Positions 45,663 through 63,977 of a DNA stretch of 64,000 nt are shown here, piece after piece (within the stretch, counting starts at the first letter, position 1; each line of letters opens with the position of its first letter). Source of the stretch: an uncultured Thermoplasmatales archaeon (GTDB lineage: Archaea > Thermoplasmatota > E2 > UBA202 > DSCA01). The notes beneath the pieces were generated by a model. It worked only from the letters and a program-made list of their open reading frames with translations, ran no database searches and was not told the DNA's origin. Position numbers and translations under genes: made by a program. The stretch lies in assembly GCA_964414415.1 (NCBI GenBank), contig CAYPWJ010000001.1, forward strand, positions 7,007 through 71,006. Direction: 5' to 3'.

Positions 45663-48600
45663 ATGAGCGCCGACAGCGACCAGGAACAACAATATGACCC
45701 GCCGACCGTCGAGCAGGACGTCATCGAATTCTGGAAGACCAACGACATCTTCGAGAAATCATTGCAGCAGCGCTGCGACTGTGAGCCCTTTGTCTTCCTC
45801 GAGGGGCCGCCGACCGCCAACGGACTGCCGCATCCCGGCCACGTCTTGACCCGTGCCGTCAAGGACGTCGTGCTGCGCTACAAGACAATGCAGGGTTACT
45901 ACGTGGCGCGCAAGGCCGGCTGGGATACCCACGGCCTGCCCGTCGAGATCGAGGTCGAAAAATCACTCGGGCTGGAGGAAAAACAAGAGATAGAGGACTA
46001 CGGCATCGAGCGCTTCAACAAACAGTGCCGGGAGAGCGTCTTCCGGTACGAGGAGGCATGGAAGGACATGACGGAGCGCGTGGGCTTCTGGCTGGACATG
46101 GAGCATCCCTACGTCACCCTGGAAAACGACTACATAGAGTCGGTCTGGTGGTCGCTCAAGCAGGCCTGGGAGAAAGGGCTGCTTACCCGCGGTCATCGGG
46201 TGACGCCGTACTGCCCGCGCTGCGGGACGACGCTGTCGTCGCACGAGGTCGCGCAGGGCTATAAAGAGGTGACGGACCCGTCGATATACATCAAGTTCAA
46301 GGTCAAGGAGAGCGATGCCTATCTGCTGGCGTGGACGACGACGCCGTGGACGCTGATATCCAACGTGGCGCTGGCCGTTCATCCCGACGAGCTCTACGTC
46401 AAGATCGAGCACCAGGGCGACGAGCTCATCCTGGCGGAGGAGCGCGCCGTCGAGCTGTTCGAGGACGACGAGTACCAAATGCTGGATGCATGGAAAGGCG
46501 AGGAACTCGTCGGCATGCAGTATGAGCCGCTGTACCGCTACGCTGAGCCGGACGAGCAGCCATGGCGGGTCATCCCGGCTGACTTCGTCACCATGGACGA
46601 CGGCACCGGCGTCGTGCACATCGCCCCTGCATTCGGCGAGGAGGACTACGAGGCCGGCAAAGAACACGGCCTGCCCGTTGTGCAGCTCGTGCAGGACGAC
46701 GGCACGTTTCCACCTGCGGTAGAGAAATGGGCCGGGCAGTTCGTCAAGGATGCCGACCCGGGCATCATCGCCGACTTGGAGGAGCGCGGGCTGCTGCTCG
46801 CCTCGCACGACATCACCCATCAGTACCCGTTCTGCTGGCGCTGCAACACACCGTTGCTCTACTACGCCATCGAGTCCTGGTTCATCGAGATGTCGCGGCT
46901 CCGCCAGGAGCTCATGGACAACAATGAACACATCGACTGGTACCCCGGCCATCTCAAAGACGGGCGCTTCGGCGGCTTCATCGAGGAAGCCCGCGATTGG
47001 TCGCTGTCCCGGAAGCGGTATTGGGGTACCCCGCTGCCCATCTGGACGTGCCGGAGCTGCGGCAACGAGCTCTGCGTCGGTAGCGTCGAGGAGCTCCGCG
47101 AGCTCGCCGGCGAGATGCCGGAGGACTACAACCTGCACCGTCCCTTTGTCGACGAGCTCGAGCTGCAGTGCCCTGCATGTGGCGGCACGATGGAGCGGGA
47201 GCCCGACGTCATCGACGCCTGGTATGACTCAGGCTCGGCGTTCTTCGCCCAGTGGCACTATCCCTTTGAAAACCGCGACGCCTTCGAGAAAAACTTTCCG
47301 GCGGACTTCATCTGTGAGGCCATCGACCAGACACGCGGGTGGTTCTACTCGCTGCTCGCTATCTCCACGCTGACATTCGACAGCCACTCCTACGAGCAGG
47401 TTGTCTCCCTCGGCCTCATCCTTGACAGGGAGGGCCAGAAGATGTCCAAGAAGGACCGGAACTACGTCAGCCCCGGCGATATCTTCGAGCGAGAGGGCGC
47501 AGATGCGATGCGCTGGTATCTCATCTCCGCGTCGGCGCCGTGGTCGCCGAAGCGCTTCTACGAAGAGGTCGTCCGGGAGGCACTCGGCAAGTTCCTGCTC
47601 ACCCTGTGGAACGTCTACTCGTTCTACGAAACATATGCCTCGCTTGACTCCTTCACCTACCACGAGCACGACATCCCGCCGGCGGAGCGGAGCATCCTCG
47701 ACCGATGGGTGCTGTCCCGCCTCAACACCGTAACCGGGGAGGCACAGCAGTACATCGAGCGATTCGAGCTGCACAAGGCCGCCCGTCTCATCGAGGACTT
47801 CGTCGTCGACGACGTCAGCAACTGGTACATACGGAACAGCCGGAAGCGCTTCTGGCTTGAGGAGGACAGCTCCGACAAGCTCGCAGGCTACGCGACCATC
47901 TACGAGCTGCTGGAGACACTGTCCCGACTGGTGGCGCCGTTCGTGCCGTTCATCTCGGAGCGCATCTACCGCAGCCTCAAGCAGCACTTTGCCCGCAGCG
48001 TGGAGCCGGAAAGCGTCCACCTGTGCGACTATCCCTCAGTCAACACAGACCTGGCCGACGATACGCTGGAAGCGCAGATGGAGCAGGCCCGCGAGATAAC
48101 CGAGACGGCGCGGTCGCTCCGCGCAAAGCACGACGTCAAGCTCCGGTATCCCCTCTCAGCAGCGGTCATCGTCGGCGACGACCTCACCCGGATGACAGAG
48201 CTGCTCAAAAACGAGATAAACGTCAAAGACATCGCGTTCGAGGACAGCCTCGAGCCATACCTGGAGCGGGTGGCGAAGCCAGCCTTCTCCGTGCTCGGCC
48301 CCAAGCTCAAGGGAAACGTCGACGAGGTAGCAGCCATCATCGAAGACAGCGCACCGGACACGCTGCCCGGCACCGACGTCGCTATCGACGGCGACAGCTA
48401 CACCATCCAGGAGGAGGACTACACCGTCGAGGAACGAGAGCGAGACGGTTACGCCATCGACAGCGCCGGCGACCTCCACGTCGTGCTGTCCCTCGAACAG
48501 ACCGACGAGCTGCTTGTGGAGGGCTTCGCCCGAGAGCTGGTGCGACGCATCCAGGAGATGCGCAAGGAACTCGACCTCGACATGGAGGAACGCATCGCCA

Positions 48601-48761
48601 CCGCCATCGACATAGACGGCAGCCGGATAGAGGGCTGGACCGACTACATCAAGACCGAGACCCGCTCCGACCAGCTCGTGCTCGGCAGCACGGACGGCGA
48701 CCTCGTCAGAGAATGGACCATCGATGGAGAGCCGATCTCCATCGGCATCGGGAGGCGATAA
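45663..48761 (+). CDS. ileS: Isoleucine--tRNA ligase
   Basis: EGPPTANG.PHPGH, GWDTHGLPVE, WTTTPWTL, GTGVVHIAP, SRKRYWGTP, DQTRGWFY, KMSK. Confidence 0.97.
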   Translation: MSADSDQEQQYDPPTVEQDVIEFWKTNDIFEKSLQQRCDCEPFVFLEGPPTANGLPHPGHVLTRAVKDVVLRYKTMQGYYVARKAGWDTHGLPVEIEVEKSLGLEEKQEIEDYGIERFNKQCRESVFRYEEAWKDMTERVGFWLDMEHPYVTLENDYIESVWWSLKQAWEKGLLTRGHRVTPYCPRCGTTLSSHEVAQGYKEVTDPSIYIKFKVKESDAYLLAWTTTPWTLISNVALAVHPDELYVKIEHQGDELILAEERAVELFEDDEYQMLDAWKGEELVGMQYEPLYRYAEPDEQPWRVIPADFVTMDDGTGVVHIAPAFGEEDYEAGKEHGLPVVQLVQDDGTFPPAVEKWAGQFVKDADPGIIADLEERGLLLASHDITHQYPFCWRCNTPLLYYAIESWFIEMSRLRQELMDNNEHIDWYPGHLKDGRFGGFIEEARDWSLSRKRYWGTPLPIWTCRSCGNELCVGSVEELRELAGEMPEDYNLHRPFVDELELQCPACGGTMEREPDVIDAWYDSGSAFFAQWHYPFENRDAFEKNFPADFICEAIDQTRGWFYSLLAISTLTFDSHSYEQVVSLGLILDREGQKMSKKDRNYVSPGDIFEREGADAMRWYLISASAPWSPKRFYEEVVREALGKFLLTLWNVYSFYETYASLDSFTYHEHDIPPAERSILDRWVLSRLNTVTGEAQQYIERFELHKAARLIEDFVVDDVSNWYIRNSRKRFWLEEDSSDKLAGYATIYELLETLSRLVAPFVPFISERIYRSLKQHFARSVEPESVHLCDYPSVNTDLADDTLEAQMEQAREITETARSLRAKHDVKLRYPLSAAVIVGDDLTRMTELLKNEINVKDIAFEDSLEPYLERVAKPAFSVLGPKLKGNVDEVAAIIEDSAPDTLPGTDVAIDGDSYTIQEEDYTVEERERDGYAIDSAGDLHVVLSLEQTDELLVEGFARELVRRIQEMRKELDLDMEERIATAIDIDGSRIEGWTDYIKTETRSDQLVLGSTDGDLVREWTIDGEPISIGIGRR

Positions 48762-48763
48762 CG

Positions 48764-49837
48764 ATGGGGAACTGCCACTTCTGCGGCAAGCCGACGCAGA
48801 GCCACACGCTGGGCGACTACGACATCTGCCACACCTGCTGGACCCAACGCGGCGACGACGTCGCAGCGCTTGAACAGGAGCTCAAGGCCCAGGTGGAACA
48901 GCCGCTCCGCGAGCTTGAACAAAACGAAAAAGAGGGTATCAAGCTCATCCGCATGATACAGCAGTACGCGATGCGCATCGAAGACCAGCTCAAGCAAGCA
49001 GCCCGCGAGTACGACGGCGAGGTCACTGAGCAGACACTTCCCGTCTTCCTGAACTGGTTCACCTTCGAGCGGGAACTCGACGACGGCTCAACGCCGGCGC
49101 AGCGCTTCGCCGCCTACTACGACACGCCCGGCTGGATTGCCGACGCAATCGAGCGCCTGCAGCAGCCCGTCCGCGGCTTTTTCGAGGTCACCGATCAGCT
49201 TGGCGAGGATCGCTACACCCTTCGGCATCTCATGGATGACACGACCTACGAGCTCTACGGCAACCTCGATCTGGACGAGGGCGATGTGGTCGGCAACAAA
49301 ATCTATCCGTGGCTCGACGTGTATCTTTCAGGTGGCGCACTGGCCATGTACGGCGAGGACGAGGCGGCCAAGATAAAACAGATGGCTGAGCAGTTCGGCG
49401 ACCTGCAGCGGCAGAGCCAGGAGATGCAGCGGCGCATCCACGAGGACTTCCTTGCCTACTTCGGGCGATGGGACCCCCTGTTCCTCTCGGAGGCAGAGGC
49501 GAGGGACATCCTCTCCGAGTTCATGGAATGGCGCGACGCTGACGCAGCGCCGCCGGAGCAGGACTGGAACGAAGGCGAGACGGCGCTGGTCTCCCACCCG
49601 GAGCACGGTATGACGGTCATCCCCGGCTATGGCTCCTTCAGGGACATGCTCGACAGCGGCGAGATAGATGCAACGGTCGCCAGGAAGGCACTTGAGCAGA
49701 TGCCGTCATGGGTACTCCAAGAGTTGATGGACGACGAGCAGTTGGCAGAGGTCGCAAGCGAGGCCTCCGACCGCAACCTCGACCCCGGCGACGTCGACGC
49801 GTTCATGGCAAGCGTGAGGGATGACTGGAGCCAGTGA
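48764..49837 (+). CDS. Hypothetical protein with N-terminal Zn finger
   Basis: CHFC...CHTC; host-like codon usage; starts 2 bp after ileS stop. Confidence 0.7.
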   Translation: MGNCHFCGKPTQSHTLGDYDICHTCWTQRGDDVAALEQELKAQVEQPLRELEQNEKEGIKLIRMIQQYAMRIEDQLKQAAREYDGEVTEQTLPVFLNWFTFERELDDGSTPAQRFAAYYDTPGWIADAIERLQQPVRGFFEVTDQLGEDRYTLRHLMDDTTYELYGNLDLDEGDVVGNKIYPWLDVYLSGGALAMYGEDEAAKIKQMAEQFGDLQRQSQEMQRRIHEDFLAYFGRWDPLFLSEAEARDILSEFMEWRDADAAPPEQDWNEGETALVSHPEHGMTVIPGYGSFRDMLDSGEIDATVARKALEQMPSWVLQELMDDEQLAEVASEASDRNLDPGDVDAFMASVRDDWSQ

Positions 49838-52337: not shown

Positions 52338-53894
52338 ATGAAAACAGTGTATCTGTGCATCCTGGCGGCCGCGGTCATCGGGATGGCGCCGCTGGGCGGC
52401 GTGTCGCTGCATGAAAGCACGTCATCTCCGGCGGCGGATGCATCCACGGCGGGTGACGGCGACCTCGACCCGCTGAGCGATGTCGAGGTAACCGTCGACA
52501 TCGAGAAGATACGCTCGCTGGTGGCGGACGACGTGCAGCCGGAGACCATCGACAGGATAGACCCGCTGAGCAAGCCTGACTTCTATGTCAAGGTGTACAT
52601 CAACGGGGAGGCGTTCACGAGCCCGGTCTGGCGGAACCAGCGATATGTGTATGACGGCTGGACGGTAACGGCGGATGTGCCCGACGACGTGGAGTACGTC
52701 GACGTGGTCATTGAGCTCTGGGATAAAAATGCCGGCCCTGACAGGCTGTGTGACCTGAGCATAAACGATGCAGGGTATCCCTCCAGCTACACCGCCAACC
52801 TGACGTACAGCATAAAGACGGGTCACTGGTGCGGAGACGACTATGTCCCCTACGAGGAGTACTGGTGCGGTCCCGACCGAAGCGGCTACGGCCGGCTGAA
52901 CGGCTGCGACGACAACAGCCAGTATGAACACGACCGGGACTGCGAGCTCTGGTTCGACATCCGGCAGAGCGACCCCGACGGCGACGGCATCCCCTACTGG
53001 ACCGAGGTCAACCGGTATGGCACCGACCCACAGGTGGATAACACCGGCGAGGACCCCGACGGCGACGGCATCCCCATCGAATGGGAACACCGGTGGGGCC
53101 ACGCCCTGGTGGTGAACTGGTGGCAGGACACCATCTACCCTGTCTGGCTCTACGACCCCTTTGTGCCGGAAAACCACAGCGAGCTGGACCCCGACGGCGA
53201 CGGGCTGACCAACCTCGAGGAGTACCGGACATCGCAGTGGGGCTCCGACCCATACCGAGATGACCTGTTTATCGAGCTCGACCAGATGAAGGCCGGTAAC
53301 GACGGACAGCCGGCCAGCACGCTCCCTGAAGGAGCGAAAGAACGGCTGCAGACCGCCTACGACAAGCACAACGTCGTCTACCATCTCGACGACGGGTGCA
53401 TGGGCGGCGGAGAGATGATTCCGTTCGAGGAGGAAACCGGCGTGGAGGAGCTCCGGGAGGAGTACTATCATGATTACTTCCTGCATGGCGACAAGGATAA
53501 CTGGCGGCAGGGCGTCTTCCACTACGGCTTGGTGATATGGGACGGCGGCCACAACGGCTACGGGATACGGCGGGACATGTGGCAGATATCCGCCAAATAT
53601 GTCGAACAAAAACGCCGGCAGCTTTTCTTCATCGACGAGGACATCATCTACGCCAGCGTGTTCATGCACGAGACAGGACATTCCCTCAATATCAGGAATC
53701 CCGGCGTAGACAATTTCGATGCGATCTATCCCTGGCAGTCCGAATACTGGAAATACCGGCCGTATGAGAGCTGCATGAACTACGGGCATACCTACACCCT
53801 CGTCGACTACTCCGACGGCTCAAACGGGATGAACGACTTCGACGACTGGGATACCCTGGACCTCACCTACTTCACCGTGGGCGGCCACTGGTAG
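52338..53894 (+). CDS. Secreted protein: C2-like domain, DxDGDG repeats, HExxH metallopeptidase domain
   Basis: Signal peptide; DPDGDG three times; FMHETGHSLN and SCMNY Met-turn. Confidence 0.75.
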   Translation: MKTVYLCILAAAVIGMAPLGGVSLHESTSSPAADASTAGDGDLDPLSDVEVTVDIEKIRSLVADDVQPETIDRIDPLSKPDFYVKVYINGEAFTSPVWRNQRYVYDGWTVTADVPDDVEYVDVVIELWDKNAGPDRLCDLSINDAGYPSSYTANLTYSIKTGHWCGDDYVPYEEYWCGPDRSGYGRLNGCDDNSQYEHDRDCELWFDIRQSDPDGDGIPYWTEVNRYGTDPQVDNTGEDPDGDGIPIEWEHRWGHALVVNWWQDTIYPVWLYDPFVPENHSELDPDGDGLTNLEEYRTSQWGSDPYRDDLFIELDQMKAGNDGQPASTLPEGAKERLQTAYDKHNVVYHLDDGCMGGGEMIPFEEETGVEELREEYYHDYFLHGDKDNWRQGVFHYGLVIWDGGHNGYGIRRDMWQISAKYVEQKRRQLFFIDEDIIYASVFMHETGHSLNIRNPGVDNFDAIYPWQSEYWKYRPYESCMNYGHTYTLVDYSDGSNGMNDFDDWDTLDLTYFTVGGHW

Positions 53895-54041
53895 CATACA
53901 CAGCCCGGCCACTATCCATCACAGTGGCAATGGCGTTATAGTGCCCGGAGGACAGATTAGCCTATAGTCCGTACTTGAATACCCAGGACATGGAGCTGTC
54001 TCGCCGGCCACTATATTTAAATCACCGCTCGCGTTAGGCAG

Positions 54042-55466
54042 ATGATGAACAGGCGGCCATCGCATGTTGATTCCTTTCTTTTCGACCGCGTCGATGGAGC
54101 ATCGCTGCTCTGTCTCGTCGACGGCGAGCACTACCCGCCGGTGACCCGGTGGACGCTCGACGAGCTGGAGCAGGCTGGCGGCAGCATCGCCGGGCTGGTC
54201 TTCATTGGCGGCACCGAAAAAGTGGACAACGCTGTCGAGGAGCTGCAGAGCGAGGAGCAGCGCTACACCATATACATGGGCGGCGAGGACTTCGACGCAA
54301 CGCTGGAGACAGTGGACAGAGCACTGCAGGAGCAGCAGCCGGACCTCGTCGTTGACCTCTCCGACGAGCCGATCGTCGGCTACGACGAGCGCTTCCGTAT
54401 CGCTACCAGGGTGCTCATGCACGACGCGTGCTACGCGGGCGCCGATTTCTGGTTTTCGCCGCCACAGCGCTGTCGGGTGCTGTCGATGCCGAGCCTGGCC
54501 GTCATCGGCACCGGGAAGCGGGTGGGCAAGACGGCGGTCAGCGTGACGATTGCCCGACTGCTCGACGCCGGGGGCTACGACCCGGTCGTGGTGGCGATGG
54601 GCCGCGGCGGTCCCCCGGAGCCGGAGGTCATCCGTCCCGGTGAGCTGGATGTCACCCTTGATTTTTTGCTCGACGTCGCGGAGGGCGGCGGCCATGCCGC
54701 CTCTGACTACTGGGAGGACGCCATCCTGGCTGACGTGCCAACGGTGGGCTGCCGGCGGTGCGGCGGCGGGATGGCGGGCAGCCCGGTGCTGTCGAACGTA
54801 CTCGAGGGCGCCGCGATTGCCGGCGAGATGCCGCAGCGCTTCGCCATCATGGAGGGATCCGGTCCGACGCTGCCGCCGGTGGCGACCGACGCCTCGGTCG
54901 TCGTCGCGGGGGCGATGCAGCCCCTTCGCTATATCACCGGCTTTTTGGGTGAATATCGTCTCCGCCGCGGCGACCTGGCCGTGGTGACCATGTGTGAGGA
55001 GCCGATGGCGTCGGAGGCAAAGGTGCAGGAGGTGTACGACGGCATCCGGGAGATACGCCCCGACATAGAAGTGGCGTTGACGGTCTTCCGGCCTGAGCCT
55101 CATCGCGACATTGAGGGCCGGCGGGTGTTCCTGGCGACGACCGCTCCCCCCATCATGGAGGGCGCGCTGGCCGGCTACCTGGAGGAGACCTACGGCTGCC
55201 AGGTGGTAGCCGTGTCCACCAGTCTGTCCGACAGGGTGCAGCTCCGTCGGGATCTGGCCGAACTGGACGAGGCAGATGTGCTGCTCACCGAGATAAAAGC
55301 CGCTTCGATTGACGTTGCAGCGGCGATGGCACGTGCCAGCGAGTGCGACGTGGTCTTCATGCATAATCGGCCGATTGTCGTGGGGGGAACCGTCGACGCG
55401 CTGGACGAGGCGGCGCTCGACGTCTGCAGCAGGATTTGCAGTGAGCATGGAGGAGTGAAAGCATGA
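54042..55466 (+). CDS. cpgS: Cyclic 2,3-diphosphoglycerate synthetase
   Basis: LVDGEHYPPV, GGTEK, DLSDEP, GTGKRVGKTA, MGRGGP, HAASDYWEDA, RRCGGG, EGSG, EIKAA..D. Confidence 0.92.
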   Translation: MMNRRPSHVDSFLFDRVDGASLLCLVDGEHYPPVTRWTLDELEQAGGSIAGLVFIGGTEKVDNAVEELQSEEQRYTIYMGGEDFDATLETVDRALQEQQPDLVVDLSDEPIVGYDERFRIATRVLMHDACYAGADFWFSPPQRCRVLSMPSLAVIGTGKRVGKTAVSVTIARLLDAGGYDPVVVAMGRGGPPEPEVIRPGELDVTLDFLLDVAEGGGHAASDYWEDAILADVPTVGCRRCGGGMAGSPVLSNVLEGAAIAGEMPQRFAIMEGSGPTLPPVATDASVVVAGAMQPLRYITGFLGEYRLRRGDLAVVTMCEEPMASEAKVQEVYDGIREIRPDIEVALTVFRPEPHRDIEGRRVFLATTAPPIMEGALAGYLEETYGCQVVAVSTSLSDRVQLRRDLAELDEADVLLTEIKAASIDVAAAMARASECDVVFMHNRPIVVGGTVDALDEAALDVCSRICSEHGGVKA

Positions 55467-56341
55467 TGCAGGTACGTAAGGGAACGAAGCGGTATCCGTT
55501 TTCGAAGGGCATCCTGGCGAAGTCTATCGCCCGGACGGGGATAGGACTGGACGAGGTCTACGAGATTGTGCAGGACATCCAGGAGGACCTGCAGCGGCAG
55601 GGACTCGAGGAGGTGAAGACGTCGGAGATAAAACGAATGGTGTGCGAGCAGCTGCTCAGTCGGGAGTATCGGACGGAGGAGCGCCATTACAGGGTGACCC
55701 GGCAGATACAGTATCTGGAGAAACCCATCGTGGTGATGATCGGCGGCGGCACCGGCGTCGGTAAGTCGACCATCGCGGCGGAGCTCGCGCATCGCCTCGG
55801 CATCACGCGCTTCATCGGCTCTGACGGCATCAGGGAGATCATGCGGTACATGGTACCCCGGGATTTCATGCCGGTGCTGCATGAGTCGAGCTTCATGGCC
55901 GGTGAATGGCTGCATAACCCGTTTGTCGAGGAGAACATCGTCTACACGTTTACGCAGCAGGTCAACATGGTCAGCGAGGGCGTCCTCGCGTTCATCCGGC
56001 GGGGCATCAAGGAGGGGCTCCACACAATGCTCAACGGCATCCACCTGGTGCCCGGCTACATCGAGTTCGACAAGGAGCGAGACGACATGTTTTGTTTCCA
56101 CTATGTGCTGCATCTTTCGGACGTCGAGCATCACATCCAGCACATCTACTCGCGCTCGGAGGGCAGCCGACGGGACCCCGACCGCTATGTCGACCGGATA
56201 AGCAACATCAGGGAGATACAGCAGTTCATCACCGAGATGGCCAGGCAGCATGACGTCCCGGTCGTCGAGAACCATGATTTCGACGAGACGCTGAACACCA
56301 TCATGGATGACATCATCACGACGCTGGAGGGGCACCTATGA
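55463..56341 (+). CDS. pgk2: 2-phosphoglycerate kinase
   Basis: ATP-cone PFSKGILA; P-loop GGTGVGKST; D..RE.MR, LH.SS, G.HLVPG; overlaps cpgS stop. Confidence 0.88.
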   Translation: MMQVRKGTKRYPFSKGILAKSIARTGIGLDEVYEIVQDIQEDLQRQGLEEVKTSEIKRMVCEQLLSREYRTEERHYRVTRQIQYLEKPIVVMIGGGTGVGKSTIAAELAHRLGITRFIGSDGIREIMRYMVPRDFMPVLHESSFMAGEWLHNPFVEENIVYTFTQQVNMVSEGVLAFIRRGIKEGLHTMLNGIHLVPGYIEFDKERDDMFCFHYVLHLSDVEHHIQHIYSRSEGSRRDPDRYVDRISNIREIQQFITEMARQHDVPVVENHDFDETLNTIMDDIITTLEGHL

Positions 56342-56772
56342 GCATGGACGCCGCGTATCCCGGCTTCTCCGAGCTCGGGAAGCCCATCCGCGAGGTGGTC
56401 ACCAAGCGGCTCATCGGCGTCACCGTCGGCAGCACGCTGCAGGAGGGCGTCGCCAAGATGGTTGAGTTCACCATCAGCTCGCTCGTGGTAACCGATGACG
56501 GGGAGCCGGTCGGTCTCATCACCGACGGGGACGTCAAGCGAGCTGTCGCCGAGGGTCTCCCGCCGGATACCCCTGTGGAGCAGGTGATGACCAGCCGGCT
56601 GATTACCGTCGACATCAGCACATCCATCCGGGAGGTGCTTGAGTCCATGTCCCGGCAGAAGATAAAGCACATGCTGGTCTCCGAGCGAGGCGACATCATC
56701 GGTGTCATCACGCTCAGGGATCTCGAGGACATGCACAGGCAGCGGCTGGAGACCTACATCTCACGTGAATAA
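56338..56772 (+). CDS. CBS-domain pair protein
   Basis: SSLVV...GLITDGD, VM T, HMLV...GVITLRD. Confidence 0.9.
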   Translation: MSMDAAYPGFSELGKPIREVVTKRLIGVTVGSTLQEGVAKMVEFTISSLVVTDDGEPVGLITDGDVKRAVAEGLPPDTPVEQVMTSRLITVDISTSIREVLESMSRQKIKHMLVSERGDIIGVITLRDLEDMHRQRLETYISRE

Positions 56773-56773
56773 G

Positions 56774-58270
56774 ATGCGTATATTCCATCTCTCGGACACC
56801 CATGTCGGCGACGCCTCCAGCTTCAACAAGGGGACGCTCTACCGCCTGCTTGAAGCGGTCGAGGAGTCCGACTGTGACGTGGTCATCCACACCGGCGACG
56901 TGACCCAGGGCGGCCGCAAGCGGGAATACCAGCGGGCCAGACAGATGCTGCCAAAGATAGACGCGCCCATGGTGATCCTGCCCGGCAACCACGACGCCCG
57001 GTCGGGTGGCCTGCATCTGTTCAAAGAATATATCGGCGAGACCAGCGGCGTCCGGGAGATCGGCGATGCCGTCATCATCTACGTCAACAGCGCGTTCGCC
57101 GACAGCGACCAGGGCCGCGTCGGGATGGTCAAATACGACATGATGCGCTCGGCGCTCAACGAGCACAGCGACGCGCCCGTCAAGGTCATCGCGCTGCATC
57201 ATCACGTGGTCCCCATCCCGCGGGCGGGCCGGGAGCGCAACGTGCTGTACAACGCCGGGGATATCCTCGACCTCATCCTGAGCAGCGACGTCGACCTGGT
57301 GCTGTCGGGCCACCGCCATTACCCCAACATCTACCGTATCGAGAACACAGTGTTCATCAACGCCGGTGCTGCCTCGGCGACGAAGACTCGCTACGGCGAC
57401 GTGAACTCCTATAACGTTATCGACATCGATGCGGAGCGGCAGCATGTGAGCACGAGACGGGTGGATGGCTCCCGGCAGCGGCAGTCGTTTCCCCGCCGTC
57501 GCCGTCATGTCTTTTCTGATTTCGGCCGCCGTGTGTTCCGGGTGGTGCATGTCTCCAACAGCTGTATATCGGACGGCCGGGCGTTTCTCCTGCAGCATTT
57601 CCGCAACGCGGTGGATGGCATCGCGGGTCTGCAGCCCGACCTGATGGTGCACTGCGGCGGCATCGTCCGGGAGGGCATCGCGCAGGACTACGAGGTCGCC
57701 ACAAGGGAGCTCTCAGCGCTCAACGTCCCCGTTGTCTACACGCCGGCCGGCCGGGACATCAACTACCTGGGCTATCATCTCTTCGCTGCTCACTTCGGCC
57801 AGTTCGACCAGGCGTATTCCGACGACGACATCCTGTTCCAGGGGATCTCGTCGGCACAGTATGACTCCCACGACGGCATCGTGGGGCCGACGGAGCGGCA
57901 GACGCTGCTCGGGCAGCTGGCCGATGCACCGCAGCAGATAAAGGCAGTGTTCCTGCATCACAACGTGCTGCCGATTCCACACAGCCGGGAGAAAGGCCTG
58001 CTCGAGGACAGCGGCGATCTGCTGCGTGAGCTCGTCGATGCGGGCATCGATCTCATTCTGACGGGGACGTCGTCTCATCCCTTCGCCGCCAGGATAAACA
58101 ACACCGTGGTCGTCAACGCCAACTCGCTGAGCAGCGTCTATCAGCGCAGCCTGTTCGGCAACTCGTTCAACCTCATCGACATCTACGAGGGTGCCATCGC
58201 GGTCTTCGAGATAAACAGCCTGTGGGGCCGCCGTCGGCTGCTCGGCATCTGGGCGCGGAACAACCGGTAG
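56774..58270 (+). CDS. Tandem metallophosphoesterase (first domain intact, second degenerate)
   Basis: Domain 1 DTH/GD/GNHD/HH/GHRH; domain 2 NSC/GG/AGRD/HH/GTSSH. Confidence 0.85.
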   Translation: MRIFHLSDTHVGDASSFNKGTLYRLLEAVEESDCDVVIHTGDVTQGGRKREYQRARQMLPKIDAPMVILPGNHDARSGGLHLFKEYIGETSGVREIGDAVIIYVNSAFADSDQGRVGMVKYDMMRSALNEHSDAPVKVIALHHHVVPIPRAGRERNVLYNAGDILDLILSSDVDLVLSGHRHYPNIYRIENTVFINAGAASATKTRYGDVNSYNVIDIDAERQHVSTRRVDGSRQRQSFPRRRRHVFSDFGRRVFRVVHVSNSCISDGRAFLLQHFRNAVDGIAGLQPDLMVHCGGIVREGIAQDYEVATRELSALNVPVVYTPAGRDINYLGYHLFAAHFGQFDQAYSDDDILFQGISSAQYDSHDGIVGPTERQTLLGQLADAPQQIKAVFLHHNVLPIPHSREKGLLEDSGDLLRELVDAGIDLILTGTSSHPFAARINNTVVVNANSLSSVYQRSLFGNSFNLIDIYEGAIAVFEINSLWGRRRLLGIWARNNR

Positions 58271-58948
58271 CTACGCCTTGGTGAGACGCTGCCGCTCCCA
58301 CCAGTACACCAGGAAATAGAAGCCGAGCATCGAGATGTTGTACAGGAAGTCCTCCACCGGTATCGTGGTCATCCTGATACCCCAGATGGCCCAGCCGCCG
58401 TAGGTCACGACAGGCGCCGCGGTCAGCAGGTAGTTGAATATCAGGAAGCCGACGAAGCTGAACAGGAGATAGAGCCAGAAATGCATGGAGGCCAGCACGT
58501 CCCGGAAAAATAGGGGAGCAACGACGAAAAACGCGGCTGTCACGACGAGGACGGTGGCGGTATATGACTGCTCATGGTACAGCGCTGCCAGTGCCAGCGC
58601 TGCGACGGCGACGGCTGCATAGAGCACGTGGGGCACCGGCAGCTCCCAATCCGGCAGAAACGCATGTAGCGCCTCGTAGATGAACAGGCAGCTGTAGGGC
58701 ACCACCACGAAGAACAGTATCTCCGCCAGTGGCAGCCCGAGGACCTCGATGCCCGAGGTATACGCATGGGCGAACGCCCAGTCGCCCCGGGCCGTCGCAA
58801 CGACGTCCCAGACAACGTAGGCGGTGCCGACCAGGGCGATGGACAGCCCGACGGCGGGCCATTTACGGTAGTAGCGGATGCGCCGCTCGAACGAAAACAG
58901 GAGCGGGACGGTCAGGATGATCGCGTCGAGCCATAGGTATTGTATCAT
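58271..58948 (-). CDS. crtY: Lycopene beta-cyclase (fused CrtYc/Yd type)
   Basis: Two repeats containing LPLAEILFF and IPVEDFLY; hydrophobic; in operon with crtB and crtI. Confidence 0.85.
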   Translation of the reverse strand: MIQYLWLDAIILTVPLLFSFERRIRYYRKWPAVGLSIALVGTAYVVWDVVATARGDWAFAHAYTSGIEVLGLPLAEILFFVVVPYSCLFIYEALHAFLPDWELPVPHVLYAAVAVAALALAALYHEQSYTATVLVVTAAFFVVAPLFFRDVLASMHFWLYLLFSFVGFLIFNYLLTAAPVVTYGGWAIWGIRMTTIPVEDFLYNISMLGFYFLVYWWERQRLTKA

Positions 58949-58949
58949 G

Positions 58950-59813
58950 CTATCCCGGCTGGCAGGAGGCGGTCTTCAAGGGCTTTGCCAGGACGTTGCG
59001 CAGCACGGTGACGACGATGTAGGGCACCACCGGCTTTACTTTCGTGCGGTACACGATGAAGGGGTCCTGCTCTATCTTGCGTGCAGTCCACTTGTACATC
59101 TCCGAGGCGGTCTTGACGGGGATGAGATACCGCTTCCCGATGAAGCGGAATCCCGCCTCCGCTGACGCCTGCCAGTTGCAGTAGCGCTCTACCTGCTCAC
59201 GGATGAAGGCGGTGAGGCCCTCGGGGTTGCCGCGTGCCTCCTGCTCTTCAAGTGTGCTGAGCCCGTGCCGCTGGAGCATCCGGAGCGGGAAATAGACGCG
59301 GCCAAACCGCAGGTCTTCGTCGATGTCCCGGATGAAGTTGATGTACTGCATCGCCCGCCCGAGCATCCGGGCTGCCGGCAGCGCCTCGTCGGGCAGCCGC
59401 ATGATGCGGGCCATCATCAGCCCGATGACCTCCGCGGAGCCGTGGATGTAATCGAGGAGGTCGTCCAGCGTCTCGTAGCGCTCCGTGTCCAGGTCCATCT
59501 CCATCGATTGGAGGAAAGCCTCCACCCACGCCGGGTCGAAGCCACGCTGTCTCAGCAACGCGGCGAAGCTGTCGACGATGACGTCGCCCGTTGTCTCTCC
59601 CTGAAGCGCCGCCTGGTAGCGCTCCCGGAATGCGTGGAACGCGTCGGGCTGCTGCGGGACGCTGTCGACATAGTTGTCGGCGGTACGGACGAAGGCATAC
59701 AGCCGGAAGACCTCCTCCCGGAGCTGGCGGGGGAAAAACAGGCTGCTGTAGAAGTAGGTGCGGCTACCTGCCTTGAACGTCTCAAAGATGCGTTTATGGA
59801 CCATGGTCATCAC
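58950..59813 (-). CDS. crtB: Phytoene synthase
   Basis: GSRTYF.SS, LYAFVR.AD..VD, M.MDL, GSAEVIG, Q..NFIRDI.ED...GRVYFP. Confidence 0.93.
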   Translation of the reverse strand: MMTMVHKRIFETFKAGSRTYFYSSLFFPRQLREEVFRLYAFVRTADNYVDSVPQQPDAFHAFRERYQAALQGETTGDVIVDSFAALLRQRGFDPAWVEAFLQSMEMDLDTERYETLDDLLDYIHGSAEVIGLMMARIMRLPDEALPAARMLGRAMQYINFIRDIDEDLRFGRVYFPLRMLQRHGLSTLEEQEARGNPEGLTAFIREQVERYCNWQASAEAGFRFIGKRYLIPVKTASEMYKWTARKIEQDPFIVYRTKVKPVVPYIVVTVLRNVLAKPLKTASCQPG

Positions 59814-61275
59814 GTATCAGTCGATGGGCAATCTGCGCCGATATCAGCGTCACCGGCACGCCGACGCCGGGATGGGTGTAATGCCCGGCATAGTAGAGAT
59901 TGTCCACTTTTTTGCTCCGGTGCCGCGGCCGCAGGATGGCGGTCTGCCGCAGCGTATGGGCGAGGCCGAGCGAGGTGCCCTTGTAGGCGTTGAAATAGGA
60001 GGCAAAGTCGTTATGGGCGAAGATGCGCTTCGTGACGACGTGCTCCCTGACGTTGACGCCGATGAGCCCCTCGAAATGACTCATGATTTTGTCGTAGTAC
60101 CGCCGGCGTATCTCCTCCGTGTCCTCAAGCCCCGGCGCGACGAGCACCAGGATGGTGAGGTTTTCGCCACCCTCCGGCGCCATCGACGGGTCGGTGTGGC
60201 TCTGGCAGCTCACGTAGTAGCTCGGGTCGTCCGGCCACCGCGGTCGGGAGCCGAAGACCTGCTCAAAGTAGCTGTCCCAGTCGGGGTTGAGATAGAGGTT
60301 GTGGTGCACCAGCGCGTCGAGCTTCGTGTCCAGTCCCAGGAAGATGAGGTAGGATGCCGGCGCCAGCGTGCGGCGCTCCCAATAGCGGCGCCCGTAGGTG
60401 CGGTAGCGCTCCGGCAGCATGTGCATCTCGCCGTGCCAGTAGTCGGCGGTGTTGACCACGAGGTCGGCGTCGACGGCTCCCTGGCTGGTGGATACGCCGG
60501 TGGCGACGCCGCCGTTCACTTGGATGCGCTTGACGTCGGTGTCGAACTGGAATGAGGCGCCCTGTTCCTGCGCCAGTTTATATACGGCCTGCATGACGCT
60601 GCCGTAGCCACCCATCGGGTACCAGATGCCGAGGTTGAGGTCGCAGTGTGTCAACAGCGAATACATGGCGGGGCTTATGTGCGGGGCGCCGCCGACGAAG
60701 GCAATGCTGTACTCGATGAGCTTCCGGGCTTTGACGCTTGAAAAATAGCGCTTGGTAAAGCGGTCGAGGCTCTGGAAGATGTGGAGCTTGAGGCCCTCCA
60801 CGATGAGCTGCGGGTCCAGGACGTCACGCCAGGACTCGTACTCGCGGTAGATGAAGTCGTCGATGGCGACCTCATATTGATATTTTGACTGCTCAAGGAA
60901 CTCTTGGAGCTTGGCGGCCCCGTTCGGCTCAAGCTCGTTGAAGAGGGCCATGTTCTGGTCGAGGTCGGCATGGACGTCGACGACGTTGCCGTCGCCGAAG
61001 AAGACGCGGTAGGAGGGGTCGAGCCTGACCGTCTCATAGTAGTCGCCCGGTGTCTTGTTGAACTCGGCGAAGAAGCGCTCGAAAGCCTCGAGCATCATGT
61101 ACCAGGAGGGACCCATGTCGAACGTGTAGCCTTTTTCCTCGTATACCATCGCGCGGCCGCCCGGCCGATTGTTTTTCTCGATGACGGTGACGTCGTAGCC
61201 GTCTCTGCCGAGCAGCGCCGCGGCGGCCATGCCGGCGAACCCGGCGCCGACGACCGCCGCGCTATCTGAGGACAT
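59794..61275 (-). CDS. crtI: Phytoene desaturase
   Basis: GAGFAG FAD motif, EKN..PGGR, FDMGPSWY, YP.GG, GLAHTL.QT, HPG.GVP. Confidence 0.92.
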   Translation of the reverse strand: MSSDSAAVVGAGFAGMAAAALLGRDGYDVTVIEKNNRPGGRAMVYEEKGYTFDMGPSWYMMLEAFERFFAEFNKTPGDYYETVRLDPSYRVFFGDGNVVDVHADLDQNMALFNELEPNGAAKLQEFLEQSKYQYEVAIDDFIYREYESWRDVLDPQLIVEGLKLHIFQSLDRFTKRYFSSVKARKLIEYSIAFVGGAPHISPAMYSLLTHCDLNLGIWYPMGGYGSVMQAVYKLAQEQGASFQFDTDVKRIQVNGGVATGVSTSQGAVDADLVVNTADYWHGEMHMLPERYRTYGRRYWERRTLAPASYLIFLGLDTKLDALVHHNLYLNPDWDSYFEQVFGSRPRWPDDPSYYVSCQSHTDPSMAPEGGENLTILVLVAPGLEDTEEIRRRYYDKIMSHFEGLIGVNVREHVVTKRIFAHNDFASYFNAYKGTSLGLAHTLRQTAILRPRHRSKKVDNLYYAGHYTHPGVGVPVTLISAQIAHRLIRDDHGP

Positions 61276-61378: not shown

Positions 61379-61846
61379 ATGATATCCATTGCGGCCATCG
61401 TTTTCTATTTTTTTTATCGTCGTCGGTGTCTTCATAGCCATGGAGGGCGTCGCCTGGCTGCTCCACCGGTACGTGATGCACGGCTTCGGCTGGTACGTCC
61501 ACGAGGACCATCACCGCTACACCACGGGCCGCTTCGAAAAAAAAAAAACGACCTCTTCGACCTCACGTTCAGCGTGCTCTCCTTTCTCCTCATCATGACT
61601 GGGTTTTTCAACGAGATATGGGTGATGCTGGCCGCCGGCATCGGCATCATGCTCTACGGCATCGGCTACTTCATTGTCCACGACGTCTTTTTCCACCGGC
61701 GCATCAAGATAAAATATCGACCGAAGAGCGCCTACCTGAAACGTGTACTCCACGCACACGCGGTACACCACCAGCAGAGCACCGCCCACGACGGCGTCTC
61801 CTTCGGCTTTCTCTACGCCGGCGGGCAATACGCCGTGAAGGACTAA
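61379..61846 (+). pseudogene. crtZ: Beta-carotene hydroxylase interrupted by two compensating homopolymer frameshifts
   Basis: [21 protein letters not shown] lies in a shifted frame between T8 (61408-61415) and A12 (61537-61548); NDLF, HDVFFHRR, HAVHH and SFGFL lie in the start frame. Confidence 0.8.
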
Positions 61847-63209: not shown

Positions 63210-63977
63210 TCAGGGCTGCAGGGTGCCGAAGAATATCTGCCAGGCCAGCGCCGACTTGGCAACGAGGCTGAGCACGATGTACATCCGCTCGCCGTAGAGG
63301 TAGTCCTTCCACTTGCCGACCTGCTTGTACTGCAGCGCCATGTTGACCGCAAAGAGGTTGAAGAAGACAGCTATTGAAACGTATATACCGATGACGAAGT
63401 CGGGTATCTGCCCGCCGGACTGCACGCTGGCACCGACAAGGGATATGGCGATGACAATCCAGGGGACGATGCCGGCGATGCAGCCGATGATGTAGCTCGT
63501 CCAATTGGTCCGCTCCGTCGTCTGGTTGTGCAGCTCCATCATGAGACCGCAGAGGTTCATGACGGCCGTTAGCGTGAACAGGGCGATCAGGGTTCCCAGG
63601 TCAAGTATGTTGGTCAGCATGGCGATGATGACGATCATGAGCGACGCGCTTATCGAGTACTCGTACCACCGTGCGGGATTGATGTGCTTTTTGAGCTTGC
63701 GTTTGTACCAGTTGTAGCCGATGGTGGCCAGCGTGAAATGCGCGATGGCCGATATGAGGAGGAACAGCGCCACCAGCGGCGCCAGCTGGATTGACCCGAG
63801 CGTGGCGTTCTGGGCGACGAGTCCCTGCCCCTCGATAAATTGTGGGTACGAGTAGGTGACGTTCCAGGTGTTGTCGTTGCTCAGCCAGAACATCAATCCG
63901 GACTGTATAAGGTGCAGGACGCCCATGACGGCGTTGAACCGCCGGAGCTTCAAAAACGTGGATTCATTTGCTTCCAT
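63210..63977 (-). CDS. heR: Heliorhodopsin
   Basis: RRFN..MG.LH..Q, AH, NPARWYEYSISAS.M, GE..YIVLSLVAKS.LAW (retinal-binding Lys); 7 TM. Confidence 0.95.
   Translation of the reverse strand: MEANESTFLKLRRFNAVMGVLHLIQSGLMFWLSNDNTWNVTYSYPQFIEGQGLVAQNATLGSIQLAPLVALFLLISAIAHFTLATIGYNWYKRKLKKHINPARWYEYSISASLMIVIIAMLTNILDLGTLIALFTLTAVMNLCGLMMELHNQTTERTNWTSYIIGCIAGIVPWIVIAISLVGASVQSGGQIPDFVIGIYVSIAVFFNLFAVNMALQYKQVGKWKDYLYGERMYIVLSLVAKSALAWQIFFGTLQP

Follow-up and report, generated by a model that had tools for sequence, protein, structure and literature searches.

The window analysed here, a stretch of 64,000 nucleotides from an uncultured Thermoplasmatales archaeon, contains a tight operon in which two genes for the synthesis of cyclic 2,3-diphosphoglycerate (cDPG), cpgS and 2pgk, are followed by one for a CBS-pair protein and one for a double-domain metallophosphoesterase (MPE). 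We consider it rather probable, and would put it no more strongly, that the operon serves both synthesis and turnover of 2,3-diphosphoglycerate (2,3-DPG)/cDPG, an anionic solute and store of phosphate, and that the MPE is a CBS-gated phosphohydrolase of that pool. The constant partner of the CBS-MPE pair is 2pgk, and therefore the common substrate is taken to be 2,3-DPG, the product of 2-phosphoglycerate kinase (2PGK).

How would such a module work? 2PGK would convert 2-phosphoglycerate to 2,3-DPG and the synthetase, CPGS, would make cDPG from it by ring closure, with the tandem MPE, bound to the CBS protein, returning the pool by hydrolysis in the direction of phosphoglycerate and phosphate. 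The dimetal active site would be in the N-half of the MPE, and the degenerate C-half and inter-domain linker would hold the CBS subunit, which would gate activity on a small ligand, most likely adenylates, with ionic strength another possibility. 2,3-DPG would be the substrate common to all lineages, and opening of the pyrophosphate ring of cDPG a possible extra where cpgS is present. What is shown below are the identities of the genes, the structure of the operon, its conserved linkage, the active and inactive MPE halves and support from modelling for CBS-MPE binding; substrate, direction of reaction and CBS ligand are inferred.

Linkage of the phosphoesterase to the pathway genes

The four open reading frames (ORFs) lie head to tail on the + strand in the order cpgS (54042-55466), 2pgk (55463-56341), CBS-pair gene (56338-56772) and MPE gene (56774-58270), and are translationally coupled. 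Direct reading of the sequence gives two ATGA overlaps of 4 nucleotides (nt) each, 55463-55466 between cpgS and 2pgk and 56338-56341 between 2pgk and the CBS gene. The TAA stop of the latter (56770-56772) is followed by a single base, g, and then by the ATG of the MPE gene at 56774. The four-gene operon of the earlier note is thus confirmed in its ORF limits, its two overlaps and its one-base gap. Its recurrence in different phyla puts the arrangement far beyond chance.

A scan of one genome per species gave 37 MPE loci, which were then searched with the four window proteins; seven have the MPE at a contig edge and are uninformative. In 29 of the 30 informative loci the CBS gene is directly upstream of the MPE gene; at the sole exception (L002) a run of N occupies the place expected for the CBS gene, so its apparent absence is an artefact of the record. 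The kinase gene is present in 28 of the 30, the contig ending in one of the others (L027) and 2pgk being about 25 kb away in the second (L031). cpgS is present at 24 of the 27 loci with room for it, and is lacking from L018, L021 and L023. At the Bipolaricaulota loci cpgS-2pgk is divergent and CBS-MPE is kept together. By record titles the lineages are Thermoplasmatota, Aminicenantes/Acidobacteriota, ‘Eubacteriales’, Balneolaceae, Brocadiia, Bradymonadales, Bipolaricaulota and Thermococci, about eight phyla.

Whole-genome patterns were followed in the phylum of the source genome, in Thermococci and in Balneolaceae. Among 401 sampled genomes of the first, cpgS is found in five and a full-length MPE in six, the two co-occurring in five; the extra MPE genome (G367) has a 3.8-kb contig that breaks off within 2pgk. 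All other MPE matches in the phylum, 77 of them, are single-domain paralogues of about 250 amino acids. Such paralogues (e.g., G000:C3:36246-36980), with 33-39% identity to the N-half, are widespread in the phylum without cpgS, and this form is probably a housekeeping relative, its family being the source from which forms linked to the pathway were recruited.

In the class Thermococci the MPE is present in 108 of 133 genomes, 2pgk in 107 and cpgS in 96, as counted per genome, close and distant placements of cpgS relative to the MPE gene (10-60 kb, or other contigs) both being seen. MPE and 2pgk occur together in 105 genomes. Of the three with an MPE and no 2pgk, two are seemingly incomplete and one has a broken MPE; the two cases of 2pgk without an MPE are both in fragments. 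All but one of the 96 cpgS genomes have the MPE as well, and in the single cpgS-only genome that gene is at a contig edge. Phylogenetic co-occurrence (95/96) and positional linkage (24/27 loci) of the phosphoesterase with the cDPG genes, which the earlier note had set in advance as the check on its proposal, are therefore both found.

Thirteen Thermococci genomes have the MPE without cpgS, and eleven of these form two clades. A 2pgk-CBS-MPE triad without cpgS occurs in G408, G409 and G411. G430, G433, G434 and G435 have 2pgk, a CBS gene in the opposite orientation and the MPE gene; CBS-MPE stands alone, with cpgS distant, in G443 and G445, and G459 has a convergent arrangement. In G445-G452 cpgS is 10-60 kb from CBS-MPE, and in G445-G447 and G450-G452 the cpgS match has one internal stop (TGA; TAA in one), which may reflect decaying copies or else the aligner reading through the natural stop. 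G531, a genome in one contig, lacks both cpgS and 2pgk, and the frame of its MPE gene is broken between the halves.

In Balneolaceae the MPE is found in 4 of 151 sampled genomes, and in G402 besides. With E cut-offs of 1e-10 or 1e-5, cpgS was found in none of these five, one of which has a contig at least 2.19 Mb long. One MPE homologue (P0043) is named by its source as from Rhodohalobacter sp. 8-1. In all five genomes 2pgk is about 460 nt from the MPE gene, the size of a CBS gene, and the MPEs have complete catalytic motifs and nest among cpgS-linked ones in a quick tree. One Thermoplasmata genome also has a 2pgk-CBS-MPE triad with no detectable cpgS. By the counts of loci and the Thermococci and Balneolaceae patterns, CBS-MPE is the most constant, 2pgk comes next and cpgS last.

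A second architecture

Metagenome contigs were scanned with A3, a profile built from distant members of the family, and this gave 80 loci. At ten of these (L107, L109, L112, L116, L118, L119, L123, L124, L127 and L128) a single-domain MPE, with 34-39% identity to the N-half, is encoded directly before cpgS-2pgk on the same strand, with no CBS gene; in L119 its ORF overlaps cpgS by 4 nt. The ten contigs are bacterial and Actinomycetota-like, with a GC content of 0.54-0.72, and have hom and thrB upstream and transaldolase and rho genes downstream. In a protein atlas, the look-alike clusters are of about 270 amino acids and mostly from Actinomycetota. The tree cited here comes from a quick maximum-likelihood search with support solely from the Shimodaira-Hasegawa-like approximate likelihood ratio test (SH-aLRT). 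In it a single subclade of 13 (SH-aLRT 85) holds all ten, its three further members being on contigs of 1.3-2.6 kb that are too short to tell. Another 47 loci have a single-domain MPE; at 24 of them the downstream sequence extends for at least 1.6 kb and cpgS is not in it. Synthesis genes in such GC-rich bacteria go unmentioned in those parts of the cDPG literature that were examined.

cpgS and 2pgk are thus accompanied by MPEs of two different architectures, in gene orders that are unrelated and in archaea as well as bacteria; where both genes are gone (G531), the MPE decays. For both reasons we regard the MPE as functionally tied to the pathway.

With A3 at E ≤ 1e-20 there are 1905 matches, including a large clade of tandem MPEs that keep more of the C-half motifs; the source names of the tandem MPEs are, among the matches listed, mostly Asgard archaea, Bathyarchaeota and Spirochaetales.

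The phosphoesterase and its CBS partner

The MPE is a calcineurin-like phosphoesterase of 498 amino acids. Its start is placed at ATG 56774 and not at GTG 56702 because homologues of 496-505 amino acids align from residue 1. The Pfam Metallophos match (E 9.3e-24) is confined to the N-half (residues 1-240; 56774-57493, + strand), a canonical dimetal domain with the presumed catalytic site. All five motifs are there, D8-x-H10, G41-D42, G71-N-H-D74, H142-H-H and G179-H-x-H182, with at least 95% conservation in a family alignment of 124 sequences and invariant or at least 90% conserved in a further alignment, A1. A1 also has R76, R115, R155, K204 and R206 as invariant basic residues, and these would suit a polyanionic substrate.

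The C-half (residues 253-494; 57530-58255, + strand) is, from alignments and the AlphaFold2 (AF2) model, a second domain of phosphoesterase fold. It has NSC, HCGG, AGRD and TGTSSH at the places corresponding to the motifs, so that apart from HH the metal-ligand motifs are gone, and it is strongly conserved in its own pattern both in the 124-sequence alignment and in A1. We predict it to be a pseudo-enzyme domain that offers a docking surface for the CBS protein. A bifunctional MPE, with ring opening by one half and dephosphorylation by the other, was considered and is rejected for this clade as the C-half is without metal ligands. In distant tandem relatives the C-half keeps DxH, GD and GHxH, but never GNHD; from these partly kept motifs it would follow that tandem duplication came first and that the second site decayed in the present clade.

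The AF2 model has two sandwich domains and is all globular (predicted local distance difference test, pLDDT, 89.3; predicted template modelling score, pTM, 0.91). Its top Foldseek matches are GpdQ (2dxl, E 4e-14), Rv0805 and purple acid phosphatases, each of which spans one half, and the best match in a sequence search of the PDB is 2zo9 (E 3e-10). Identity to the GpdQ/Rv0805/CpdA class is 18-21%, and no solved chain spans both halves (TMq about 0.4). No hydrophobic segment is found in the MPE, the top 19-residue Kyte-Doolittle mean being 1.11, a result with which peripheral membrane association is compatible.

The CBS-pair protein (56338-56772, + strand) has 144 amino acids, with two stretches matching PF00571 in tandem (E 2.4e-22) and a conserved C-terminal tail, LETYISRE. 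In an alignment of 17 such sequences, A2, residues G59, T62, D65 and G122 are invariant, and these may be a ribose/adenosyl-binding motif. CBS pairs, like ATP-cones, are nucleotide-binding modules. Sensing of adenylates by this protein is conjectural.

Does it bind the MPE? A two-chain model has an ipSAE of 0.72 (0.71, 0.72 and 0.77 in separate runs) in contrast to 0.00 for the best of three controls. In calibration 116 of 157 solved complexes scored this high, as did 2 of 215 mismatched pairs; here these counts are only a rough guide because custom alignments (A1 and A2) were used. The partner pLDDT is at least 81 and contacts agree between runs to at least 85%. On the MPE the modelled interface consists of residues 242-249, in the linker between the domains, residues 476-492, in the final strands of the C-half, and two loops of the N-half; on the CBS protein it involves residues 16-29 and 44-57. 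The model supports binding of the CBS protein to the MPE, of which it is a predicted regulatory subunit; the suggestion in the earlier note of a regulatory partnership between the two is the more plausible for it.

The synthesis genes

The identity of cpgS (54042-55466, + strand; 474 amino acids) is clear from sequence comparison. It matches the Methanothermus fervidus cDPG synthetase 8ork with E 3.2e-129, residues 21-463 aligning to 6-450 of the chain, and also 8oru (E 3e-129) and 9sxb (E 7e-101). In the P-loop stretch igtgkr(v/i)gktav the M. fervidus enzyme differs from it by one conservative V/I replacement only, and its homologues are named as cDPG synthetases and carry PF27272. It is a clear orthologue of the M. 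fervidus enzyme. By source names its homologues include ones from Methanohalarchaeum thermophilum, Halalkalicoccus salilacus, Mcinerneyibacterium aminivorans and Promethearchaeota (P0158, P0199, P0184, P0242), and there are at least 8000 candidates with E ≤ 1e-20. With homologues in such lineages and in such numbers, the synthetase family is far wider than the ‘methanogens only’ of the literature.

The second gene, 2pgk (55463-56341, + strand), specifies 292 amino acids, with an ATP-cone (PF03477, E 1.3e-8, residues 8-82) and then a P-loop kinase, families of which match from residue 85. NCBIfam PRK04220 matches with E 1.1e-88 over 287 of the 292 residues; as its 297.6 bits are below the curated equivalog cut-off of 343, the product is graded 2PGK-like.

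The source genome (G000) is of 1.62 Mb in 45 contigs and 92.9% complete. It has no match to mcrA (PF02249) within that completeness, and control methanogens were matched; as far as tested the lineage is non-methanogenic, in keeping with what had been surmised before. It has the mutase ApgM (PF10143, E 6.6e-47), and a search at the same completeness gave no His_Phos_1 match, and so no dPGM. With ApgM present and dPGM not found, 2,3-DPG would not be needed there as a mutase cofactor or for a bypass. Roles for 2PGK plus MPE in a ‘PGM bypass’ or in ‘dPGM cofactor supply’ were considered and are weak here on these grounds.

What is hydrolysed?

The earlier note had the MPE as the degradative enzyme of cDPG itself. 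What stands of this is the linkage to the cDPG genes, and a degradative role is probable; what does not stand is cDPG specificity, since triads without cpgS occur in at least four lineages. A hydrolase of 2,3-DPG explains both the clusters that contain cpgS and the triads that lack it, whereas a cDPG hydrolase alone explains only the former. With 2pgk and not cpgS as the constant partner, 2,3-DPG, alone or together with cDPG, is the better fit.

Several considerations weigh against a phosphohydrolase of the 2,3-DPG pool. A co-transcribed kinase and phosphatase would constitute a futile cycle unless regulated, and regulation is assumed. The nearest characterised relatives, GpdQ, Rv0805, CpdA and SpdA, are phosphodiesterases, so that the chemistry favours the cDPG ring or a nucleotide over 2,3-DPG. 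The triads that lack cpgS come in part from metagenome-assembled genomes, and there may be a non-homologous cyclase. Nineteen distant tandem MPEs (29-30% identity; L051, L053-L058 and L060-L071) have none of cpgS, 2pgk and the CBS gene in their vicinity, and the wider family therefore has other roles. cDPG has been measured solely in Methanothermus, Methanopyrus and Methanothermobacter, and the genomes of all three lie outside the present surveys; their names are not among the 120 + 120 homologues listed, which is uninformative on presence. Lastly the MPE looks soluble, whereas one of the cDPG hydrolases described is, according to the part of PMC1224877 consulted, membrane-bound.

What of an enzyme specific for cDPG, opening the cyclic pyrophosphate to 2,3-DPG, with the CBS protein as an adenylate sensor? 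This we think unlikely, though it is the most serious of the alternatives. In its favour, cpgS is in the same operon here and at 24 of the 27 informative loci, the MPE accompanies it in 95 of the 96 cpgS-bearing Thermococci, and in the pathway subclade all ten single-domain relatives with room are directly before cpgS. In addition the nearest structures are of diesterases and, on chemical reasoning, each phosphorus of cDPG is diester-like, and an activity lacking an assigned gene in the literature found is there to be accounted for. It is at odds with the triads that have no cpgS, which are found in Balneolaceae (five genomes), in Thermoplasmata (one genome) and among the 13 Thermococci genomes with an MPE but without cpgS, and with the Balneolaceae MPEs keeping their catalytic motifs and nesting among cpgS-linked ones. 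It also sits awkwardly with the membrane-bound hydrolase of van Alebeek 1994 (as given in the consulted part of PMC1224877), as the MPE has no membrane segment.

More doubtful again is that the MPE is a phosphodiesterase of cyclic nucleotides or dinucleotides which, with the CBS protein, forms a signalling pair controlling solute synthesis indirectly, the MPE then not being a pathway enzyme. CBS pairs and ATP-cones bind nucleotides, matches in the PDB by both sequence and fold include Rv0805 and Icc, and many homologues are labelled CpdA in their source records. CpdA (E 4.5e-18) and SpdA (E 1.6e-14) head the NCBIfam matches for which a substrate is defined, but the cut-offs for these class III cyclic nucleoside monophosphate phosphodiesterases are missed by far, with 65.7 bits against 225 for CpdA (PRK11148) and 54.2 against 400 for SpdA. 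Nor would translational coupling and an order conserved with a metabolic kinase across phyla be expected of such a pair, and the relatives of actinobacterial type are linked to cpgS-2pgk with no CBS protein.

Clusters for other solutes often end in a dedicated phosphatase, and the MPE gene is co-transcribed with synthetic genes. Could it then be biosynthetic, giving a different end product, or a proofreading enzyme that clears a toxic by-product of 2PGK or CPGS? We judge this quite improbable: the cluster has no further conserved transferase or synthase, a gated catabolic step is better suited to having a regulatory CBS subunit of its own, and the known pathway, as it is set out in the part of PMC1224877 seen, needs no phosphatase step.

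That the MPE and CBS genes are an anti-phage defence pair merely beside the cDPG genes is scarcely credible and is rejected: the NCBIfam matches to the ‘anti-phage phosphoesterase’ DS9_1 (E 3.4e-23, MPE) and to DS11 (E 2e-5, CBS protein) have 82.2 bits against a cut-off of 420 and 23.9 against 260, far below threshold, PADLOC gives the MPE N-terminal motif-level matches only (E 1.7e-11, residues 1-75) and the CBS protein none, and a fixed order with 2pgk across phyla, and presence in 108 of 133 Thermococci genomes, are unlike a defence island.

A hydrolase of the 2,3-DPG pool accordingly remains our preference. A bolder version of it, which we put forward tentatively and with more doubt than belief, is that 2PGK, CBS protein and tandem MPE form a self-contained, ligand-gated system for building up and releasing a pool of 2,3-bisphosphoglycerate, or of cDPG where CPGS is added, that this system has spread by gene transfer, and that the MPE family supplies the missing hydrolase gene. 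That spread would encompass halophiles and thermophiles of both domains, in Thermoplasmatota, Thermococci, Balneolaceae, Aminicenantes, Planctomycetota and Bipolaricaulota, with the single-domain form in Actinomycetota-like lineages.

Operon surroundings

The ORF upstream of the operon ends at 53894, which leaves a gap of 147 nt before cpgS. In it, at 54012-54021 on the + strand and some 21-30 nt 5′ of the cpgS start codon, is the TATA-box-like TATATTTAAA, which by its sequence and placing is a candidate archaeal promoter for a leaderless or short-leader operon transcript. A scan for sigma-70 promoters and terminators, the scope of which does not extend to archaeal promoters, gave no promoter-like site and one terminator-like site, inside cpgS, which is chance level. 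At the other end the TAG stop of the MPE gene (58268-58270, + strand) abuts the stop of a convergent lycopene-cyclase-like gene (58271-58948, - strand).

That gene belongs to a carotenoid cluster directly downstream (58271-61275, -; 61379-61846, +; 63210-63977, -), with ORFs for phytoene synthase and phytoene desaturase, one that is lycopene cyclase-like and one that is fatty-acid-hydroxylase-like. The carotenoid genes are followed by one for heliorhodopsin (PF18761, E 2.2e-98), a light-related set in a small Thermoplasmatota genome. Two long ORFs have no Pfam match at E 1e-4. One, of 518 amino acids (52338-53894, +), is the ORF that ends 147 nt before cpgS; the other, of 604 amino acids (48023-49837, +), overlaps an isoleucyl-tRNA synthetase-like gene and, in GC-rich DNA, may be spurious.

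Significance and comparison with known systems

For the breakdown of cDPG there is now a concrete candidate gene, within a conserved unit of two proteins, CBS and MPE. The synthesis genes and CBS-MPE travel together in many non-methanogenic and often saline lineages, bacteria included, and a broader role is therefore indicated, as counter-ion, phosphate store or carbon store. By the hierarchy of linkage, the currency shared by all would be 2,3-DPG and not cDPG. On the bolder version given above, phosphoglycerate-based anionic solutes or phosphate stores would be widespread outside methanogens. The excerpts of PMC10690619 at hand have cDPG as exclusive to hyperthermophilic methanogens. Elsewhere, in the portions seen, two cDPG-synthesis genes of Pyrococcus yayanosii are up-regulated at stress pressures (PMC4890121), cpgS is reported in Nitrosocaldaceae (PMC7819960), and TK1039 of Thermococcus kodakarensis is listed as cpgS (PMC5663688). 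Neither a phosphoesterase nor a CBS gene is mentioned in the corresponding portions, supplements aside, of PMC10690619, PMC12136491/bioRxiv 2025.02.21.639460, PMC4890121 and PMC7819960. No literature linking 2-phosphoglycerate kinase with a metallophosphoesterase was found, and none that assigns a gene to cDPG hydrolase activity, in agreement with the earlier note on the latter point. Interest in producing cDPG as an extremolyte, expressed in the part of PMC12136491 consulted, makes a specific hydrolase and its regulator of practical relevance.

How does the operon compare with what is known? With the methanogen cDPG pathway of Methanothermus fervidus, consisting of 2PGK and cDPG synthetase, it shares cpgS orthology and the architecture of ATP-cone plus kinase in 2pgk; it differs in that its host is without mcrA and that the synthesis genes are joined in a single operon by those for the CBS protein and the MPE. 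The cDPG hydrolase activities of Methanothermobacter are known, from the part of the 2005 review PMC1224877 that was seen, through biochemical work only (Sastry 1992; van Alebeek 1994), and the hydrolase of van Alebeek 1994 is there described as membrane-bound and inhibited by K+ and phosphate. The reaction proposed here overlaps with theirs, cDPG to 2,3-DPG with carbon and phosphate returned; those activities, however, have no assigned gene, and the membrane-bound one contrasts with an MPE that has no hydrophobic segment. The dimetal phosphodiesterases GpdQ, Rv0805 and CpdA have the same fold and five motifs as the N-half of the MPE, but the MPE has two fused domains, the second catalytically degenerate, and a separate CBS partner.

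For nucleotide gating the analogy is with the CBS-regulated family II inorganic pyrophosphatases, in which a CBS module goes with a metal-dependent hydrolase acting on P-O-P or phosphate compounds, and NCBIfam PRK14869 models match the CBS protein weakly. Their fold is DHH, with the CBS insert in the same chain, whereas here the fold is calcineurin-like and the CBS subunit is a separate one of 144 amino acids. Storage operons of the ppk-ppx type are not homologous, yet in logic they are alike, enzymes for the synthesis and for the hydrolysis of a phosphate store being encoded together.

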